Of a DNA stretch of 64,000 bases, positions 9,729 to 57,966 are shown one piece after another. Location: positions 12,324 to 76,323 of the forward strand of contig DAKD01000027.1 in the NCBI GenBank assembly GCA_002499085.1, in the 5' to 3' direction. The stretch is from Methanomassiliicoccales archaeon UBA280 (GTDB lineage: Archaea > Thermoplasmatota > Thermoplasmata > SG8-5). A program made the position numbers and the translations under genes. The notes beneath the pieces were generated by a model that was not told the DNA's origin, did not search any database, and was given only the letters and a program-made list of their open reading frames with translations. Numbering within the stretch: the first letter of the stretch is position 1; each line of letters opens with the position of its first letter.

Positions 9729-11072
9729 ATGGACGAGAAGGAGCTTTTGGAGAGGGCCAAGCGCCCCGGCAAGGCCGCAATGGCCTGGCACCCTTTCTAC
9801 AGGGGCAAGATGGAAGTGATTCCCAAGTGCCGGGTTAGGGACTTCTCCGATTTCGGTGTCTGGTACACTCCGGGGGTCGCCGAGCCCTGCAACGACATTG
9901 CAGCGCATCCCGAGAGGGTTTTCGAGCACACCAACAGATGGAATTACATCGCTGTGGCCAGCAACGGCACAAGGGTTCTGGGCCTCGGGGACATAGGCCC
10001 TCTGGCCGGCTATCCGGTGATGGAGGGCAAGGCCCTGCTGTTCAAGTATCTCGGCGGCGTTGATTCCACTGCCCTCATGATCGACGCCAAGGACCCGGAG
10101 AGGTTCATAGATACCGTGAAGGCAGTCGCGCCCACCTTCGGGGGAATCAATCTCGAGGACATACGGACTCCGGATTGCTTTTACATCCTGGACAGGCTGA
10201 GGAAGGAGCTGGACATTCCAGTTTGGCATGACGACCAGCAGGGCACGGCCGCGATAACTCTTGCCGGAATCATCAACGGCCTGAAGGTCGCCGGAAAGAG
10301 ACTTCCCGAAGCGCGCATCACCCTGGTCGGGGCCGGGGCGGCCAACATATGCCTGGCATTGACGCTGATGAAGGCCGGCGCTTCGCCCGGAAAGATCGTA
10401 ATCGCGGACAGCAAGGGCACGCTCCATTCCGGGAGAAAGGACCTTGAAACTGATAAAAAGAATCCGAAGAAATGGGAGCTGGCCCAAAAGACGAATTCCG
10501 AAGGAGTCGCGGGGGACATTGCAGCTGCCCTGAAAGGCGCGGACGTTCTTGTCTCGGCTTCCAAGCCCGGCCCGGGCACTATCAAGAAGGAATGGCTCGG
10601 GGGCATGGCCCACAACCCGGTTGTCTTCGCCGAGGCAAATCCCGTTCCCGAGACCTGGCCCTGGGAGGCCAAGGAAGTCGGGGTCAGGATATTCGGCACC
10701 GGCCGGTCGGATTTCCCGAACCAGGTCAACAATTCAATCGGATTCCCGGGCATCTTCAGGGGGACCCTGGATGTAAGAGCCAGCACAATCACGGATGAAA
10801 TGCACATTGCAGCGGCCCATTCAATAGCAAAAACAGCCGAGGAAAAAGGCCTGCGCGAGGATTATCTTGTTCCCACGATGGATGAAATTTCGGTATTCAT
10901 CAACACCGCGGTTGCAGTGGCCGAGAAGGCCATGGAGCAGGGCGTCGCCGGGTTGAAAAGGTCGCGCCAGGACCTGCGGGAGACGGCTGAGTTTCTCATC
11001 ACCACGTCAAGGGAAAAGACCAATTTGATGATGGATAATGGCTTCATCCTGGAGCCGCCTGAAACGGATTAG
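9729..11072 (+). CDS. NAD(P)-dependent malic enzyme
   Basis: Supporting motifs: VWYTPGVAEPC, LGLGDIGPLAGYPVMEGKALLFK, GGINLEDI, VWHDDQQGTA and the Rossmann motif GAGAAN. The ATG at 9729 lies downstream of TATA-like CTATAAAAAC. The ORF-track start at 9687 is a TTG. Confidence 0.9.
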   Translation: MDEKELLERAKRPGKAAMAWHPFYRGKMEVIPKCRVRDFSDFGVWYTPGVAEPCNDIAAHPERVFEHTNRWNYIAVASNGTRVLGLGDIGPLAGYPVMEGKALLFKYLGGVDSTALMIDAKDPERFIDTVKAVAPTFGGINLEDIRTPDCFYILDRLRKELDIPVWHDDQQGTAAITLAGIINGLKVAGKRLPEARITLVGAGAANICLALTLMKAGASPGKIVIADSKGTLHSGRKDLETDKKNPKKWELAQKTNSEGVAGDIAAALKGADVLVSASKPGPGTIKKEWLGGMAHNPVVFAEANPVPETWPWEAKEVGVRIFGTGRSDFPNQVNNSIGFPGIFRGTLDVRASTITDEMHIAAAHSIAKTAEEKGLREDYLVPTMDEISVFINTAVAVAEKAMEQGVAGLKRSRQDLRETAEFLITTSREKTNLMMDNGFILEPPETD

Positions 11073-13825
11073 AGGGACCTACGCCGGCGCAGGAAATAGG
11101 CGAATACTGCCGCAGCGATAAAAATCGCCGCGACTGTAATTGTGATCTCTGTTGGGGACAGCGAGATTTGGGATGGGGGCGGTTCCTCGGGAGGTGCAGC
11201 GTCCACTATCTGCAATGTGCACCGGTTCTGCCCCTGAATGGTTCCGTTCGCCGGATGCACGGCTACGGCTGTCAGCAAATACTCGATGACGGAGCCGTCG
11301 TTGTCAGGCAGGTCCGTAGCCGTGACAGTGAACCTTGCCCTGCCATCCGCATCTGTATCCTGATACATAGGTTCGACCATCGGTACTGCCGGGGACGCTG
11401 CCAGGGCGACAGAAGCCCCGCTGACGCTTGCCCCGTCCTGGTCTGTGACAAACACATCAACATAGGTGAAGCCCAATGTTCCGTCCTCGGAGATGTCGGG
11501 GCTGATTATGTCCGGGTCCGCAGACATCATGGCCGACAGGAAAGGCCTGCCTGCCGGATAAACGCGGATGAGTATCTGTCTGCTCGGGGCGTCTTCATAC
11601 TCCCAGTCGGACGGGTCAGTGTACTTGGCCTTGACAATCTGGATTATCGCCTCAGTCCCGTTGGCCTGGGCATCAGGGTCTGTCGGGTCGGCCCACGGTG
11701 CCGTGAAAATCACAGTCAGCTTCCCGGTAGATGAGGTGACACCGGTTTCGATTGATAGGGTTCCGACTGAGGCCGAGAGCTGGACAATGGCGCCTTCCAC
11801 GGGGTTGGCGTTCTCGTCCTTGACTAGCACCGCCAGGGAAGAAGCGGAGCCCGAGATCACAGCCGAGGGCGGGGAAACAAACTGCGCGACCAACTTATGC
11901 GGGTTTGGACCCCTGATGGCCCTTAGAGACTGTATGTTGAATACTGAACCTGCATCGCTCTGCCAGCCTGTGAACCGGTCCGAGCGAAGAGCCTCGATGT
12001 TGGTTTTGTAGTGTAGCACATCATAGGGGAGGTCGTTGCATACCGCTGCCTGGGCCTCGAATATCGCAGCCTTTCTGACAGTGTCGTTGTCTGACGACCT
12101 GGCCAATTCTACCGCGGAGTCGAAGCTCGAGTTCCTGTATCCTGCATGGTTCAACCCGACGTCCACACTCTCAGAGTGGAAGAGGCTGTATAGGAATTCC
12201 GGAGGCTCTGAATCTATATTGGTCCGGGACATGCACATGTCGAAATCCCCGGACAGCATCCTGTCCTCTATGGAGCGGATGTCCATCGCAACCGAGTTGG
12301 TATATATGCCTACGTCCCTGAACTGGTTGGCAATCATCAACCCGGGCTGGGCACATATCGGGTCATAATTGGCCTCGGGAGTGAGCATCTCGATTAGGCC
12401 GCCTGCGCCGCTGCCTATGGGTGTGCCGTCGGGATTCATCCACCATTTTCCATTCCCGGCCGCGGCAATGGCCTCGGCGCCGGAGAGCAGAGTTCCAGAG
12501 CTGTTGACCTTGTATCCCGCATTCGCCAGGATGTTCTTCGCCTCCTGCGGGTCAAAGCTGTACTTCCGTATGCTCTGGTTGTACCATGGGCTGATAGAGC
12601 TGATTGTGCCTTCGCCCGCGATTCCCGTGCACAGAAGCAGTCTCTGGACGATTGTGTTTTTGTCTATGCAATGGGCCATGGCCCTGCGCAGGGGCTTTCC
12701 TGCATCCGAGCCGGCCGTGTCGTATCCAAACGAACACCGTCCCATGTTGTATGCCAGATGGGTGAAGCTCTCGTCGAAGCTTTGGTATAGCGATATTCCG
12801 GGCTCGTTAGCGAGTTCCTGGATGAACGTTGGGGGCACTGACCATGCGATGTAATCGGTGTTGTTGCTCTTCAGCGCCAGCACCGCCGACTCCGCCGTCC
12901 TGAACGACCTGAACATGATGCCGCCCACATGCGACTGCTCGGCGAGGGAGCGCCCCCATTCGTCATGGCAGAAGTCTTCGTACGCGAAACCGGGCCCGAA
13001 GAAATGCGCGCGCCAGGCTGTGAGATTCGTGTAATCCCCTGAGGCATTAGCCCATTTGAAAATCCCGCTACCTATGGGATTCGGATTGGAAAATTCGCTG
13101 GCTGCCGAGAGGTGCCAGGAATCATATGAATCCGGAACGTAACCCGAATCGCACCATATCTTAGCGTGGTCAACGGCCTGGCCAGACGCGGCACCCGCCC
13201 ACACATGTTCGGGTAGCAGCCTTACTGCAAGCGTTCGGTTGAAGAACTGCCAGTAGGGGACCTGGAGTGTGAACTTCAGCGCGGCTTTTGTTCCGTTCTC
13301 CCAGAGTTTCTCGATGCCCAGGCCGTGCGTGATGCTGTAATCACCCTCCATCAGGCAGCGCATATCGCCCCTGGATTCGGGTAACTGAGCCGCCACATGG
13401 TAGCTAAAGAGGATGTCCCTGATATCCATCTGATGGCCGTCATGCCACATTACATTCGTGAAGTCGTAGAATATCACTGCCTCGGGGTGCGAAGAATCTG
13501 TCCATGTCGATTTGGGGGAATATCCGAAATTGCCAATCTCGCAGCCGGACCAGTCCGTTCCGAGACCTGTGGAATTGGCCGAGCCCACTGCGATGTAAGG
13601 TCTTATTTTACCTTCATCATCCAAGAAAACCGGCGTGTCATAGATCCACCGGGTCATCAGATGCGTCCAGTGGTCGATGCCGGTGTAGAAGGGGTTGGTG
13701 CTCTGGAGTTCGCCCTGCACCGCGACCCTGAGTATGAGCCCGTCCTCGGCCTGGGAGCTGGCCGGAGCCGGCACTATCGCTGCCGCGACCAGAAAAAATG
13801 CCACGAGGGGGGCGGCCCACCTCAT
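11069..13825 (-). CDS. family-5 (Opp/Dpp-type) solute-binding protein paralog 1 with Ig-like C-terminal extension and TM anchor
   Basis: 918 aa. It has a signal peptide, an SBP_bac_5-like body (...AGYKV..., WWMNPDGTPIG, FDMCMSRTNI) and an intimin/Big-like segment (VLVKDENANPVEGAIVQLSASVGTLS). The C-terminus is hydrophobic, ending in RRRRSL. Its start overlaps the upstream stop by 4 nt. Confidence 0.8.
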   Translation of the reverse strand: MRWAAPLVAFFLVAAAIVPAPASSQAEDGLILRVAVQGELQSTNPFYTGIDHWTHLMTRWIYDTPVFLDDEGKIRPYIAVGSANSTGLGTDWSGCEIGNFGYSPKSTWTDSSHPEAVIFYDFTNVMWHDGHQMDIRDILFSYHVAAQLPESRGDMRCLMEGDYSITHGLGIEKLWENGTKAALKFTLQVPYWQFFNRTLAVRLLPEHVWAGAASGQAVDHAKIWCDSGYVPDSYDSWHLSAASEFSNPNPIGSGIFKWANASGDYTNLTAWRAHFFGPGFAYEDFCHDEWGRSLAEQSHVGGIMFRSFRTAESAVLALKSNNTDYIAWSVPPTFIQELANEPGISLYQSFDESFTHLAYNMGRCSFGYDTAGSDAGKPLRRAMAHCIDKNTIVQRLLLCTGIAGEGTISSISPWYNQSIRKYSFDPQEAKNILANAGYKVNSSGTLLSGAEAIAAAGNGKWWMNPDGTPIGSGAGGLIEMLTPEANYDPICAQPGLMIANQFRDVGIYTNSVAMDIRSIEDRMLSGDFDMCMSRTNIDSEPPEFLYSLFHSESVDVGLNHAGYRNSSFDSAVELARSSDNDTVRKAAIFEAQAAVCNDLPYDVLHYKTNIEALRSDRFTGWQSDAGSVFNIQSLRAIRGPNPHKLVAQFVSPPSAVISGSASSLAVLVKDENANPVEGAIVQLSASVGTLSIETGVTSSTGKLTVIFTAPWADPTDPDAQANGTEAIIQIVKAKYTDPSDWEYEDAPSRQILIRVYPAGRPFLSAMMSADPDIISPDISEDGTLGFTYVDVFVTDQDGASVSGASVALAASPAVPMVEPMYQDTDADGRARFTVTATDLPDNDGSVIEYLLTAVAVHPANGTIQGQNRCTLQIVDAAPPEEPPPSQISLSPTEITITVAAIFIAAAVFAYFLRRRRSL

Positions 13826-16590
13826 GCTTTCTTCCTCCGCTTGAGCATGTAGCCGAAGGCTGCGGCCGCGACGAAGATTGCCGCGAGGGTGAATGTTATT
13901 TCTGCCGGCGACAGCCCCGAGTCCGACCCGGGGGGCGGTTCTGTGTACAAGTCAACCACCGTGATGGATATCGTGTTTTCGCCTTGGATGTGTGTGTCGG
14001 TCGGATGAATGGCAATTGCCGATAAGGAATACTCGGCCACAGTCCCGCCCGAACCGGAAATGTTGCCGACCGTCACCCTGAACCTTGCCCTGCCTTCCGC
14101 ATCTGTGCGCTGGTCAGCAGGCTCGATGTCTATAACCGCCGGGGAGGCACTGAGCCCCACATTCGCATTTTCCACCGGAACGCCATCTTGGTTGACGACG
14201 AGCACATCAACATAGGTGAAGCCGGGTGTGCCACCGATGTCCGAGTCTATCACATCCGGGTCTGCTGTCAGGGATACTGAAAGGAACTCGGCCCCCTCCG
14301 GGAAGACCTTGACAAGGGTTATCCGGCTGGGCGCCGGTTCGTACACAACATATTCGGGCGAGACATAGGTCGCATACTCTATGCTGATAAGCGCGCCGGA
14401 GCCGTTTATGACAGAGTCTATGTCGTTCGGGTCAGAATATGGAGCCGTGTAAGTAACAGTCAGCTTCCCGGTCGATGAGGTGTTGCCGAACTCCTGGGAC
14501 AGCGCGCCGGCGGTCGCGTTCAGCTTCACCCCGGCCCCTTCCAGGGGATTGCCGTCCTGGTCCCTGACATATACAGTTATCTGGGTCGTGGAATTGGATA
14601 GGACGGCCGAGGGCGGGCTCATGAACTGGGCGATGACCTTCCACGGCCCGGGAGCGTGGATGTTGTACAGGGACTGCAAGTTGAATATCGAGCCTTTGTC
14701 GCCCACGACCCAGCCTGTGAACCTGTCCGAACGGTAAGCCTCGATGTTGGTCCTGTAATACAGAACGTCGTAAGGCAGGTCATAGCAAATCGCGGCCTGC
14801 GCGTCCAGTATGGCTTTCTTCTTCACGGCCGGGTCGCCCGTGCTCCTGGCCAGGTCGATGAGCGCGTCGAAGGAGGCATTGTTGTACCCGGGGTAGTTCT
14901 GGCCCACATCGGCATTATCGGAGTGGAAGAACGCGTGCAGGTAGTCGGCCGGCTCGGAGCCGATGCTCCAGCCCAGGATGTACATGTCGAAGTCCCTTTC
15001 GTCAATCCTGTCGACGATTGAGCCGAAGTCCATTGCCACTGATTGGGCATAGATTCCGATGTCGCGTAGTTGCTCAGCAATAATCGCTGGCCGCTGATAG
15101 CTGATTGGGTCATAGTGTCCTTCGGGAGTCAATATATCAATCAGGCCGCCAGATGAGCTCCCTATGTTCGATCCATCCGGATTCAGCCACCAGTTGCCGT
15201 TCCTGGCTTTTGTCACGTCGGCAAGCCCCGTGGTTGAATTGATGCTGCCGTCAGTCAGTTTATACCCTGCGTCGGCCAGTATCTGCTTGGCCTTCTCCGG
15301 GTCGAAATCATAGGTCGGGACCGAGGAATTGTACCATTCGCTGAACGGTGACACCGGCCCTGTGCCGGCCACCCCAAGGTTCAGAAGATCTCTTTGGACA
15401 ATTCTCTGCTTGTCTATGCAATGCGCAATCGCCCGGCGCAACGGCTTACCCACATCCTCACCTGTCTCGTTGTACCCGAAGGATTTCCTCCTCATGTTAT
15501 AGGCCAGGTAGAAGAAGCCTTTCTCGGGGTTCTGCTGGAGGGCTATGCCGGGCTCGTTGGCCAGCTCCTGCACGTATGTCGGCGGCACAGACCAGGCAAT
15601 GTAATCTATATCGTCGGATTTCAGGGCCAGGACCGCGGCTTCGGCCGTCCTGAATATCTTGTATGTGACCGCGTCTATCTCGGGCTGCTTGGCATCCGAG
15701 CGGCCGTATTCATCGGTTCCGACATAGTCCCTGTACTTGTAATCCTCACTGAAGAAATGGTCGCGCCATGTGGATATCTTTATCGTGTGGCCGACCTCGT
15801 GGAATTCAAACTTGAAAGGGCCGCTTCCTATGCATGCGGCATTCTCGTATGCCTGGGCCGGCGCCGCAAGCCAGGGGTTCGAAAGGTAATCCGTGTCGCA
15901 CCATATCTTGGCGCCGGATAGCTGGCCTGCTGCAACTGTGTTCCATATGTGCTCGGGCAACAGGAATGTGGATATCGTGGACCTGAAGAAGTCGGCGAAC
16001 GGCTCCTGGACCTGGAACCTGAGCGCGGCCTGCAACCCATCGGCGCTCTCCCAGACCTTGTAAACATGCAGCCATCCAATAGCCGAGAAATTCGAACCGA
16101 TGGCGCCCCCATTGGCCTTCAGCGGGTTCATTGAGCCGGACCAATCCGGAATCTGGGCCGCAAGATGCATCGAGAACATGATGTCCCTGACTGTCATCTG
16201 CACGCCGTCATGCCATGTAATATTCGTGAAATCGTAGAATAGTATGGCTTCCTGCTTCGTCTGGTTCTGCCAGACATTCTTCGGGCTGTAGCCGAAGTTC
16301 CCGATCGCGCAGTCAGCCCAGGAATCGGCTTTACCCGAGACATTGGCCGAGCCCACCGCGATGTACGGGACTATCTCGTCAGTGTCCGGGTCGGTGTTGA
16401 TGGGGTCGTCGAAGATGTAGCTGAGCACGTTCCAGGACCAGACGTCGCCCACGATCAGGGGGTTGGTGCCCTTCATGTCGTCCTGCATGGCGACCCGCAG
16501 TATGAGCTCCGAATCCTGGGAGCTGGCGAGGCCGGGTGCAAGTGTCCCGGCGAGCATCAGCAGAGCCGCGGCGAACACGAGAATCCTCAT
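13822..16590 (-). CDS. family-5 solute-binding protein paralog 2 with Ig-like extension and TM anchor
   Basis: 922 aa, colinear with paralogs 1 and 3 (FDMYILGWSIGSEP, WWLNPDGSNIG). It has a signal peptide and a C-terminal TM segment ending in KRRKKA. ATGA overlaps occur at both junctions. Confidence 0.8.
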   Translation of the reverse strand: MRILVFAAALLMLAGTLAPGLASSQDSELILRVAMQDDMKGTNPLIVGDVWSWNVLSYIFDDPINTDPDTDEIVPYIAVGSANVSGKADSWADCAIGNFGYSPKNVWQNQTKQEAILFYDFTNITWHDGVQMTVRDIMFSMHLAAQIPDWSGSMNPLKANGGAIGSNFSAIGWLHVYKVWESADGLQAALRFQVQEPFADFFRSTISTFLLPEHIWNTVAAGQLSGAKIWCDTDYLSNPWLAAPAQAYENAACIGSGPFKFEFHEVGHTIKISTWRDHFFSEDYKYRDYVGTDEYGRSDAKQPEIDAVTYKIFRTAEAAVLALKSDDIDYIAWSVPPTYVQELANEPGIALQQNPEKGFFYLAYNMRRKSFGYNETGEDVGKPLRRAIAHCIDKQRIVQRDLLNLGVAGTGPVSPFSEWYNSSVPTYDFDPEKAKQILADAGYKLTDGSINSTTGLADVTKARNGNWWLNPDGSNIGSSSGGLIDILTPEGHYDPISYQRPAIIAEQLRDIGIYAQSVAMDFGSIVDRIDERDFDMYILGWSIGSEPADYLHAFFHSDNADVGQNYPGYNNASFDALIDLARSTGDPAVKKKAILDAQAAICYDLPYDVLYYRTNIEAYRSDRFTGWVVGDKGSIFNLQSLYNIHAPGPWKVIAQFMSPPSAVLSNSTTQITVYVRDQDGNPLEGAGVKLNATAGALSQEFGNTSSTGKLTVTYTAPYSDPNDIDSVINGSGALISIEYATYVSPEYVVYEPAPSRITLVKVFPEGAEFLSVSLTADPDVIDSDIGGTPGFTYVDVLVVNQDGVPVENANVGLSASPAVIDIEPADQRTDAEGRARFRVTVGNISGSGGTVAEYSLSAIAIHPTDTHIQGENTISITVVDLYTEPPPGSDSGLSPAEITFTLAAIFVAAAAFGYMLKRRKKA

Positions 16591-51759: not shown

Positions 51760-52170
51760 CCGAACGCCCGCAGGGCTTCGGTTGAAGAGAAAACCCAACG
51801 TCCGAAGGACTTGGGATGGAGAGTAAACTACCAGCCCCTGAAGGTAGTGGCGAATTCATTATAATCGGTGAAATTCGCCCTATCTCCAGTCTTCCTTCGG
51901 AAGCCTGAAGAGGCAGGCGTTTGGAGCAACGATATTCGCTGCGACTTAGCCGAATTTTGAATTCGGCGATAGTTGCCAGGGCTGGAAGTTTACCATGGGT
52001 TAGTTATATGCCGAATCAGAGATTCGGCAAACCCATTTTGAAATGTCAAAATGGAGCATACCTATTTTATCGAAGCCTGGGAGCTTCGATTCATTTTGAT
52101 TATATATTCACGGTATGCAACGGTGGATTGACTACTGCCCATGCCGATTCATCTCAGCCCTGAAGGGCTG
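51760..52170. ncRNA. candidate structured RNA / hairpin array (unclassified)
   Basis: At least nine stable hairpins lie in a 570-bp non-coding gap: 51760-51781, 51794-51815, 51828-51847, 51849-51879, 51891-51903, 51949-51967, 52010-52028, 52033-52054 and 52069-90. A tenth lies at 52155-52170. There is no convincing ORF. I could not recognise a known RNA family. Confidence 0.3.
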
Positions 52171-56745: not shown

Positions 56746-57432
56746 ATGAACCCCGTATCTTGGCTGATTGAATTCATCCTGCACCTGGATTCGAACCTTG
56801 CCTACATGATTGACCAATACGGGCCCTGGGTATATGCAATCCTGTTCATCGTCGTATTCTGCGAGACCGGGCTCGTGGTGTTTCCCTTCCTCCCCGGGGA
56901 CTCTCTCATATTTGCGGCCGGCGCCATGGCCATTGCCTACGGCTCGTTCAATATCTGGGCCCTTTTCATCGTATTTGTCTCGGCTGCCATCATCGGGGAC
57001 ACTGTGAACTACTGGCTCGGCCACTATGTTGGCCCGAAAATATTCTCGAAGGAGAATTCCAGGCTCTTCAAGAAGAAATACCTGGATGATGCCCACGTGT
57101 TCTACAGAAAGCACGGCCCCAAGACAATATTCCTGGCGAGGTTCATACCCATCATGCGGACATTTGCGCCGTTCGTGGCCGGCGTAGGCAGGATGGATTA
57201 CAGGAAATTCGTTGTTTACAACGTGGTGGGTGCCTTTGCCTGGGTGTCCATATTCCTGAGCCTGGGGTATGTGTTCGGCGATCTGAGAGTTGTAAAAGAG
57301 AACATTACTTTGCTCTTCGTGGCCATAATCATAGTCTCCTTCGTTCCGCTTATTCTCGGCTGGCTGTTGGAAAGACGCAAACAGAGAATTAAAGCCAGTC
57401 GCCAAAAATCCACAGCGGGAAAACACCGATAA
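56746..57432 (+). CDS. DedA-family membrane protein
   Basis: Supporting motifs: CETGLVVFPFLPGDSLIFAAG and RFIPIMRTFAPFVAGVGRM. Confidence 0.85.
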   Translation: MNPVSWLIEFILHLDSNLAYMIDQYGPWVYAILFIVVFCETGLVVFPFLPGDSLIFAAGAMAIAYGSFNIWALFIVFVSAAIIGDTVNYWLGHYVGPKIFSKENSRLFKKKYLDDAHVFYRKHGPKTIFLARFIPIMRTFAPFVAGVGRMDYRKFVVYNVVGAFAWVSIFLSLGYVFGDLRVVKENITLLFVAIIIVSFVPLILGWLLERRKQRIKASRQKSTAGKHR

Positions 57433-57470
57433 TTACTGGTTGCCATCACGGAAAGGCTTAAATCCCGCCC

Positions 57471-57479
57471 ATTATATAG
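57471..57479 (+). promoter_or_regulatory. TATA box (ATTATATAG) of the tRNA gene
   Basis: It lies about 30 nt upstream of tRNA position 1 (57508). Confidence 0.5.
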
Positions 57480-57507
57480 ACACAGCACCCAGGTCAGACC
57501 ACGCCAC

Positions 57508-57740
57508 AGCGGGGTGGGGTAGCCAGGAAATCCCATCGGGCTCATAATCCCGGAAGCTTGCTTTCGGGAATGGGACACCCGAAGACCAGTCGTTCAAACC
57601 GAGGGCCAGTGTCTGTAAACAATCACTGGCAAAACTGGCCGAGGCCGTGCCGAATGGTGCAGCTATTCGTGCCGGCCCGAGACGGGCTTGCCCGTCGAGA
57701 CGCAGGCAAAGTTGCTTCGTTGAAAATCGACTCCCCGCTA
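57508..57740 (+). tRNA. initiator tRNA-Met (anticodon CAT) interrupted by two introns
   Basis: Exons join to AGCGGGG-TG-GGGT-AGCCAGGAAA-TCCC-A-TCGGG-CTCATAA-CCCGA-AGACC-AGTCG-TTCAAAT-CGACT-CCCCGCT-A (75 nt). This has the A1:T72 pair and three G:C pairs in the anticodon stem, as in archaeal initiator tRNAs. Intron 1 is 57547-57576 (30 nt, canonical 37/38 position). Intron 2 lies within the T-loop, about 57596/57599 to 57723/57726 (about 128 nt). Its exact junction is ambiguous because of repeated A residues. Confidence 0.8.
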
Positions 57741-57744
57741 TATC

Positions 57745-57750
57745 TTTTTT
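57745..57750 (+). terminator. oligo-T terminator after the tRNA
   Basis: A TTTTTT run starts 5 nt after the discriminator base. Confidence 0.5.
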
Positions 57751-57966
57751 ATGTTTTCCAAAATGCCATAGGGGGAGTGGCCAAAATATGCGATTTGATG
57801 ATTCGGTCTTAATTTGGCCATAGCGCCGAATTTCTTTGACGGTTCAAATCAATGGACGAAATTCGGCTGAGTCGCGGCGATGATTGCAAACACCCCGGAA
57901 CTACGCCGCTCCACTCCCCGCTATATATTTATTTACCAAAGCCGATTCCCCCCCGTGGAGGAAGAG

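Follow-up and report, generated by a model that had tools for sequence, protein, structure and literature searches.

The gene at positions 57508–57740 (+) of the 64,000-nucleotide (nt) stretch analyzed here (contig DAKD01000027.1 of Methanomassiliicoccales archaeon UBA280; hereafter, the window) is an initiator tRNA (tRNAi-Met) gene made of three exons (39, 22, and 14 nt) and two introns (30 and 128 nt). Judging from its sequence, we put at about 0.9 the probability that it is the functional, and probably the sole, tRNAi-Met gene of an uncultured Thermoplasmata archaeon, and that both introns are of the protein-spliced, bulge–helix–bulge (BHB) kind. The initial annotation of this DNA had proposed the same coordinates, exons, and inserts, and these were recovered base for base:

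57508–57546 (+): exon 1 (tRNA positions 1–37), AGCGGGGTGGGGTAGCCAGGAAATCCCATCGGGCTCATA (AGCGGGG...CTCATA); acceptor 5' strand, D arm, anticodon stem 5' strand, and CAU anticodon
57547–57576 (+): intron 1, 30 nt, at the canonical 37/38 site; BHB motif; homologous introns in the related loci L007, L013, L023, and L001
57577–57598 (+): exon 2 (positions 38–59), ACCCGAAGACCAGTCGTTCAAA; anticodon stem 3' strand, variable loop, T-stem 5' strand, and T-loop to A59
57599–57726 (+): intron 2, 128 nt, in the T-loop at 59/60; three-hairpin RNA with a BHB at its ends
57727–57740 (+): exon 3 (positions 60–73), TCGACTCCCCGCTA; T60, T-stem 3' strand, acceptor 3' strand, and discriminator A73

Joining the exons yields a 75-mer that ARAGORN types as tRNA-Met(CAT) and that matches, at 75/75 bases, the intronless genes of the related loci L005, L006, and L014, in agreement with the 75-nt product first predicted. 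The product has an A1:U72 pair and three consecutive G:C pairs in the anticodon stem (G29–31:C39–41), both of which are marks of initiator tRNAs, together with a TTCAAAT T-loop; the CCA end is not encoded. Left unspliced, the gene is invisible to standard tools: ARAGORN called no tRNA with its intron option on or off, a check that the initial annotation had proposed, and Rfam returned no match either at the gathering threshold or at E ≤ 10.

The three exons follow one another in order on the same strand over 233 nt, between one promoter region and one oligo-T run, which rules out a split or permuted tRNA gene. A group I or II intron and an insertion sequence (IS) were also rejected, as the 128-nt insert holds no conserved open reading frame (ORF) and matches no Rfam intron family. 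The same applies to a protein-coding reading: ORFs 57558–57812 (+) and 57216–57578 (–) overlap the tRNA, and the conserved blocks of an element lying downstream (see below) stand in different frames in different copies.

Splice motifs and proposed processing

In the BHB definition against which each intron was tested, a 4-bp helix (H) separates two 3-nt bulges on opposite strands, helices h and h' lie on either side, and each cut falls after the second bulge nucleotide. Both introns have a 5-bp h, a 4-bp H, and two 3-nt bulges that place the splice sites correctly. In intron 1, h is the anticodon stem, H consists of C:G, U:G, C:G, and A:U, the bulges are UA|A and AC|A, and h' comprises 1 bp, a 1-nt slip, and then 8 bp (9 bp in total). 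In intron 2, h is the T stem, H consists of U:A, U:A, C:G, and A:U, the bulges are AA|C and AA|U, and h' has 5 bp with one extra U. As modeled, both motifs are near-canonical.

By sequence alone, the T-loop splice point could lie anywhere from 56/57 to 59/60, and a BHB forms at 59/60 only; registers 56/57 to 58/59 would give the same product and were rejected on this ground. All homologues of the T-loop intron, and an unrelated 65-nt intron at the same site, share this BHB geometry and the invariant ends NCGA...UCG-U-UGRA-AA|U. Both 37/38 and 59/60 are listed archaeal intron positions (PMC4090602). An exon-3-like copy downstream was rejected as an alternative 3' exon, since it forms no BHB and would introduce a C:C mismatch into the T stem. 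In one relative (L026), a D-loop intron at 20a/21 forms a perfect H, both bulges, and h', with almost no h helix; in the model it resembles the relaxed HBh' motif.

The flanks of the gene hold candidate transcription signals:

57452–57464 (+): A/T-rich box AAAGGCTTAAATC, putative promoter part, conserved in relatives
57472–57479 (+): box TTATATAG, putative promoter part, 29–36 nt upstream of the gene
57745–57750 (+): oligo-T run TTTTTT, probable archaeal terminator of the tRNA gene

The two upstream boxes recur at equal distance from the tRNAi orthologues of L001, L005, L006, L007, L011, and L014, and T-rich stretches follow the gene in all relatives. We regard the boxes as a putative archaeal promoter, either of which may act as the TATA box; they and the oligo-T run lie where the initial annotation had placed a TATA box (about 30 nt upstream) and an oligo-T tract. 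The A/T-rich stretch at 57745–57750 could also act as a TATA-like box of the element downstream.

From the exon–intron boundaries, BHB geometry, conservation, and covariation observed here, we propose a processing pathway whose enzymes, order of steps, and intron fate would be as follows. Transcription from a B recognition element (BRE)/TATA-type archaeal promoter would produce a pre-tRNA of ~233 nt, not counting leader and trailer. In it, the anticodon stem and the T stem would each extend into a 4-bp helix with two 3-nt bulges, placing the four scissile bonds in two BHB motifs. The archaeal splicing endonuclease (EndA) would then cut after A37, before A38, after A59, and before U60, and an RtcB-type ligase would join the three exons and probably circularize both introns. 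RNase P, tRNase Z, and a CCA-adding enzyme would finish the 75-nt tRNA.

Several points weigh against a functional gene with two BHB-spliced introns. Motifs could be drawn at all junctions, as the initial annotation had proposed to check, although neither reaches the strict form: h' comes into register only when one 3'-strand nucleotide between H and h' is left unpaired, and an unconstrained minimum free energy fold pairs this extra nucleotide, giving in both introns a 5-bp H and a 2-nt 5' bulge. A tblastn search with Methanocaldococcus jannaschii EndA (PDB 1A79) found no EndA in the window or in the fetched loci; its matches were insignificant and fell inside unrelated surface proteins of ~920 amino acids (aa), and a candidate in a PDDEXK gene of the relatives was dismissed as a weak match (E = 0.8). 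Finally, Thermoplasmata belong to Cluster II Euryarchaeota, a group reported to possess the narrow-specificity α'2 EndA exclusively and to have single canonical introns (PMC5829648, PMC4090602). Set against this, the product equals an uninterrupted orthologue, both inserts sit in BHB-type motifs, and homologous introns with covarying helices occupy the same sites in relatives. These observations support the reading that a 37/38 intron and a T-loop intron of ~128 nt interrupt a tRNAi-Met gene.

Orthologous loci and intron gain and loss

To identify relatives, the exact exon-1 39-mer was scanned against one genome per species (185,579 species). It occurred at nine loci, all in metagenome-assembled genomes (MAGs) of Thermoplasmata, Methanomassiliicoccales, or Proteinoplasmatales, with a single match per genome; this includes the intron-bearing MAGs of L001, L002, and L007, in which no second copy with that exon was found. 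Scanning metagenomes for the 3' intron/exon junction yielded L010–L012 as well, and L013–L035 came from contigs that encode homologues of the neighboring ThiF protein. In all loci the tRNAi gene is flanked by a VTT/DedA gene and a ThiF-family gene, the one exception being L025, where the tRNA gene is inverted. This shared position indicates that the loci are orthologous. They differ in intron content:

No intron: L003–L006, L008, L009, L014–L019
37/38 intron only (31 nt): L001
T-loop intron only: L002/L012 (131 nt in L002), L020, L025
T-loop intron present, contig ending 5' of it so that the 37/38 site is not covered: L010, L028, L034
37/38 intron and long T-loop intron: the window, L007, L011, L013
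37/38 intron and a different, 65-nt T-loop intron: L023/L024 (L023 1161–1330, L024 905–1074)
47-nt D-loop intron (20a/21) and T-loop intron, no 37/38 intron: L026/L027 (L026 1650–1894; GCA_028703755.1, JAQVMG010000014.1)

Six of the nine exon-1 loci carry an uninterrupted 75-nt gene; L005 and L006 are among them, and the other four differ from the spliced product only by C47U. ARAGORN detects the intronless genes of L003, L005, L006, and L014, and the Rfam tRNA model (RF00005) gives 58.6 bits for those of L005 and L014. Both methods miss the intron-bearing genes of the window, L001, L002, L007, L013, L020, L023, and L026.

Across loci the exons are identical except for C47U in some lineages, whereas the introns diverge heavily, in at least nine distinct configurations. 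Near-invariant exons with diverging introns are what a functional spliced gene would leave, the opposite of a decaying pseudogene. The locus is also 100% identical in four independent sequencing runs with the window's own population, whose DNA occurs in runs SRR1313283, SRR1313285, SRR1313287, and SRR943332. In a neighbor-joining tree of the adjacent ThiF proteins, the losses of the T-loop intron described below fall within the intron-bearing clade. The 65-nt T-loop intron of L023/L024 (GCGATGATGGATGACAC...) has the same 59/60 site and BHB-forming ends and a different interior, indicating that the interior was swapped while the splice-site module was kept. Its stretch GATGATGGATGA resembles a C box; no D box was seen in this intron.

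The host is a Thermoplasmata archaeon of the Methanomassiliicoccales type, and all relatives are of Thermoplasmata type. The nearest ThiF homologues are only 70–75% identical, so none of the listed genomes comes from a close relative of the organism. The initial annotation had called a large T-loop intron in the initiator tRNA uncommon and had noted that multi-intron tRNAs with non-canonical positions are reported mainly in some Thermoproteales and a few other archaea; a host outside the Thermoproteales makes the case more unusual than was then assumed.

The T-loop intron and the downstream element

We aligned seven homologues of the T-loop intron (123–145 nt). The RNAalifold consensus comprises the T stem with the BHB, a 5-bp closing helix, and three hairpins, the middle one of ~18 bp. 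In this consensus 96% of cells are paired, compared with 30–45% when the partners are slid. Sixteen pairs are changed on both sides, and the observed covariation score was reached by none of 500 shuffles. The helices contain 12 G:U versus 3 A:C cells, an excess that points to RNA-level selection on this strand, and some nucleotides outside the BHB are invariant too. At a minimum, the modeled compact fold would juxtapose the two distant splice sites.

The excised intron RNA may also have a function of its own. A stronger form of this idea, modeled on the C/D box small RNA (sRNA) of euryarchaeal tRNA-Trp introns, holds that the host gene keeps the T-loop intron mainly as a stable, probably circular, three-hairpin noncoding RNA. 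The 16 covarying pairs, the spread of 123–145-nt introns over at least seven lineages (including the separately named Proteinoplasmatales SG8-5), and the invariant nucleotides outside the BHB are in its favor, and archaeal tRNA introns with functional RNAs are documented (PMC4090602). However, the intron is wholly lost in the close relatives L005 and L014, L001 lost it yet kept the 37/38 intron, L023 carries the unrelated 65-nt intron at the same site, and the fold may serve only to bring the splice sites together. A C/D or H/ACA guide RNA was rejected: no such boxes are present, with neither TGATGA nor CTGA in 57599–57726, as the initial annotation had also reported, and no Rfam family matched at E ≤ 10. 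We regard a role of the intron RNA as the main reason for its retention as a tentative, rather unlikely explanation.

One hairpin of the long intron, GCCGAAT...ATTCG at 57649–57669, had been linked in the initial annotation to a repeat family of the window. The motif is indeed enriched: GCCGAAT-loop-ATTCGGC hairpins match nine times in the window, against 0.45 expected. Three of them (51849–51880, 51949–51967, and 52010–52028) cluster in an intergenic region 3' of the SHMT gene, one is the hairpin of the T-loop intron, and one makes up hairpin 2 of the downstream element (57825–57867). The motif may be a lineage-wide hairpin or protein-binding motif.

Directly 3' of the tRNAi gene lies a second conserved structure:

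57768–57926 (+): conserved structured element, ~155 nt, ending in an exon 3 copy
57779–57819, 57825–57867, and 57874–57909: its hairpins H1, H2, and H3

In its closing helix, the 5' strand (ATAG)GGGGAGTGG pairs with the 3' strand CCACTCCCC(G)CTAT and encloses the three hairpins. This helix mimics the acceptor/T-stem minihelix of the tRNAi, with a compensated swap of C52:G62 to G:C, and the element ends in ACTCCCCGCTATAT, the same 14 terminal bases as the tRNA gene. The two ends form a direct repeat, 57727–57750 (TCGACTCCCCGCTATAT...) and 57910–57933 (TCCACTCCCCGCTATAT...), that starts exactly at U60, the 3' splice site; the same arrangement is found in L007, L010, L013, L020, and L034. The repeated piece includes non-tRNA flank (TAT and a T-rich stretch) and no CCA, which indicates copying at the DNA level rather than from mature tRNA.

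A covariance model (R1) built from six copies scored 150–175 bits on the + strand and 17–40 bits on the – strand (169.5 and 28 bits, respectively, for the window copy), and 128.7 bits on the held-out copy of L034. In the 186 kb of the window and loci, full copies occur only beside tRNAi; a match at 51906–52045 (–) in the window is marginal (15.7 bits, E = 0.13). In some relatives copies stand in tandem, and they number from 0.2 to more than 2 per locus:

One copy: the window; L007 3802–3974 (–); L010 1178–1351 (–); L013 3805–3976
At least two copies: L011 (10874–11045), near-identical to L013
Two copies and a stub: L020 2066–2238, 2246–2413
One copy and a stub: L034 48–218
Stubs: L025, L026, L028
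Degenerate copy: L001

Elements occur only beside intron-bearing tRNAi genes, almost always with a T-loop intron, and none was found beside an intronless tRNAi gene among the loci examined. Where the tRNA gene is inverted (L025), the stub has kept its place at the 3' end of the tRNA instead of next to ThiF. The element body (128–132 nt) is similar in length to the T-loop intron. The two showed no detectable sequence homology: local alignments did not surpass those of shuffled sequences, and nhmmer searches in either direction gave no match. Across the window and 10 relatives, neither intron nor element matched an Rfam family, and only intronless tRNAs were recognized.

Two ideas lead for the nature of the element. 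It may be a small RNA that ends in a tRNA minihelix and uses tRNA end processing, or it may be a recombination/duplication product at the 3' exon that may also have seeded the T-loop intron (compare PMC3293823). Under a wholly DNA-level version of the latter, intron and tandem elements are by-products of recombination or integration at TCGACTCCCCGCTAT, and the intron is selfish or neutral and survives because of its BHB. The start of the direct repeat exactly at the 3' splice site speaks for this, as does the ending of each downstream unit in an exon 3 copy followed by a T-rich spacer. The unequal copy number in the near-identical contigs L011 and L013 and the restriction of elements to intron-bearing genes fit as well, and a published model ties mobile-element integration to tRNA intron gain and scattered fragments (PMC3293823). 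However, the ~180-bp units carry no integrase, transposase, or terminal-repeat signature, and only ~165 noncoding bases, with no integrase, recombinase, or element gene, lie between the repeats. The absence of detectable homology between intron and element body also counts against it, and the co-occurrence of the two could reflect shared ancestry within one clade. Nor was a viral or plasmid source found: IMG/VR gave no match for element H1, the element 3' end, the intronless T-arm, or the intron 3' junction, and BLASTN against phages and plasmids gave none (an apparent phage relative, L036, was a chance 18-mer inside a phage ORF). We consider such a by-product origin unlikely.

Equally improbable in our estimate is a proposal that joins these strands, namely that the T-loop intron and the tandem units result from one undescribed process acting on the tRNAi 3' exon (60–73) in this Thermoplasmata clade. 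The units would then be a tRNA-derived, tRNA-processing-dependent family of structured ~130-nt small RNAs, whose duplication or insertion at U60 would seed BHB introns; this part we hold just as doubtful. If true, it would provide a living example of archaeal tRNA intron origin in a lineage thought to lack non-canonical introns and might imply broadened EndA specificity.

That the gene is a decaying pseudogene, disrupted by an element in the T-loop while an intact copy elsewhere serves the cell, is very improbable: the silence of ARAGORN and Rfam at the locus, the large insert, and the nearby tRNA 3'-end fragments and probable mobile island (IS transposase, Dam methylase) would suit it, but the exons hardly vary in any lineage (one C/T difference, at position 47) beside strongly diverged introns, the ends that form the BHB do not vary at all, the intron helices show covariation, the locus is syntenic with intronless tRNAi orthologues, and intron-bearing MAGs have a single exon-1 match per genome.

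Two other regions of the window were noted. The segment 59562–62962 has a low GC content (0.41–0.47, compared with ~0.57 elsewhere) and three genes: one for a D12-class N6-adenine DNA methyltransferase, one for a DDE_Tnp_1 transposase, and an ORF that matches nothing in Pfam. The segment probably represents a mobile restriction–modification/IS island, in whose place the relatives carry a PDDEXK_19/HTH_3 gene. At 11069–13825 (–) and 13822–16590 (–) lie two paralogous ORFs in tandem (918 and 922 aa), both with a signal-like N-terminal segment and a C-terminal membrane anchor; their products look like secreted or surface proteins of the solute-binding type.

Relation to known systems and implications

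The mechanism and the 59/60 position are already known. Archaeal tRNA introns measure 11–129 nt, and 20/21 and 59/60 are among their non-canonical sites (PMC4090602); other archaea are known to use the 59/60 position and to combine a 37/38 intron with a break at 59/60 (PMC4090602, PMC3239211, PMC3218864). New features are the lineage, introns that reach 145 nt in relatives, their conserved fold, and the tRNA concerned, which is the initiator. In the literature library searched, no paper dealt with both Methanomassiliicoccales and tRNA introns.

A close precedent is the permuted initiator tRNA gene, tRNA-iMet(CAU), described in Thermofilum pendens (Chan et al. 2011, PMC3218864), which is likewise interrupted by a 37/38 intron and a 59/60 BHB junction. 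In T. pendens, the 3' piece (position 60 to the end, CCA included) lies upstream of the 5' piece, making the gene circularly permuted with an encoded CCA, whereas in the window the exons are collinear, CCA is not encoded, and extra copies of 60–73 lie downstream. In ARMAN-2 (Ca. Micrarchaeum acidiphilum), pre-tRNAs such as tRNA-Cys(GCA) and tRNA-Pro(GGG) also have a 59/60 intron with the T stem as the exon-side BHB helix (Fujishima et al. 2011, PMC3239211). As in the window, a gene there can hold more than one intron, and the host branches with Euryarchaeota (PMC3239211). The one ARMAN-2 59/60 intron whose length we read is 13 nt, some motifs are of the relaxed hBH form, and the enzyme is an ε2 EndA (PMC3239211). 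The window differs in its 128-nt intron, conserved three-hairpin fold, and initiator tRNA.

The multi-intron tRNAs of Thermoproteales and other Crenarchaeota (Yoshihisa 2014, PMC4090602) resemble the present case in having up to three BHB introns, at sites including 20/21 and 59/60, and in patchy gain and loss among close relatives. Intron transposition has been proposed for them, and they are associated with a broad-specificity (αβ)2 EndA and introns of 11–129 nt (medians 12–25 nt) (PMC4090602), whereas the clade described here belongs to Thermoplasmata and its homologous introns reach 139–145 nt. The euryarchaeal tRNA-Trp intron with a C/D box sRNA (cited in PMC4090602) is similarly long and conserved, with an interior under selection; it lies at 37/38 and has C/D boxes, whereas the present intron lies at 59/60 with no C/D or H/ACA boxes and no Rfam match. 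Finally, the tRNA-Thr(GGU) of Caldiarchaeum subterraneum (Sugahara et al. 2012, PMC3293823) combines, as here, intron gain, a nearby duplicated tRNA fragment, and population-level variation. There the fragment is 5' and a 1.8-kb recombinase-encoding element lies between (PMC3293823), whereas the window has 3' fragments on ~155-nt noncoding structured units without a recombinase.

These comparisons bear on the splicing enzyme. The EndA of Thermoplasma acidophilum is listed as narrow in specificity (PMC6379350), and an α'2 EndA removed a D-loop HBh' intron poorly (PMC5829648). Across this clade one essential tRNA has up to two introns per gene at three sites (20a/21, 37/38, and 59/60), a pattern that predicts either an unrecognized broadening of EndA specificity or a wider tolerance of the α'2 enzyme. 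The HBh'-like D-loop intron of L026 belongs to a substrate class reported to need a broad-specificity EndA.

A tRNAi gene with both an anticodon-loop and a T-loop intron was unexpected in this lineage, although such a layout is known in other archaea, and with 123–145 nt the T-loop intron family exceeds the quoted range of 11–129 nt (PMC4090602). Since ARAGORN and the Rfam tRNA model miss the intron-bearing tRNAi, genomes of this clade would be annotated as having no initiator tRNA, which affects assessments of MAG completeness and quality. The structural conservation of the T-loop intron family suggests that the excised RNA may have a function. The series of genes with and without introns, together with the units terminated by exon 3, provides an unusually well-resolved natural series for the gain and loss of BHB introns.

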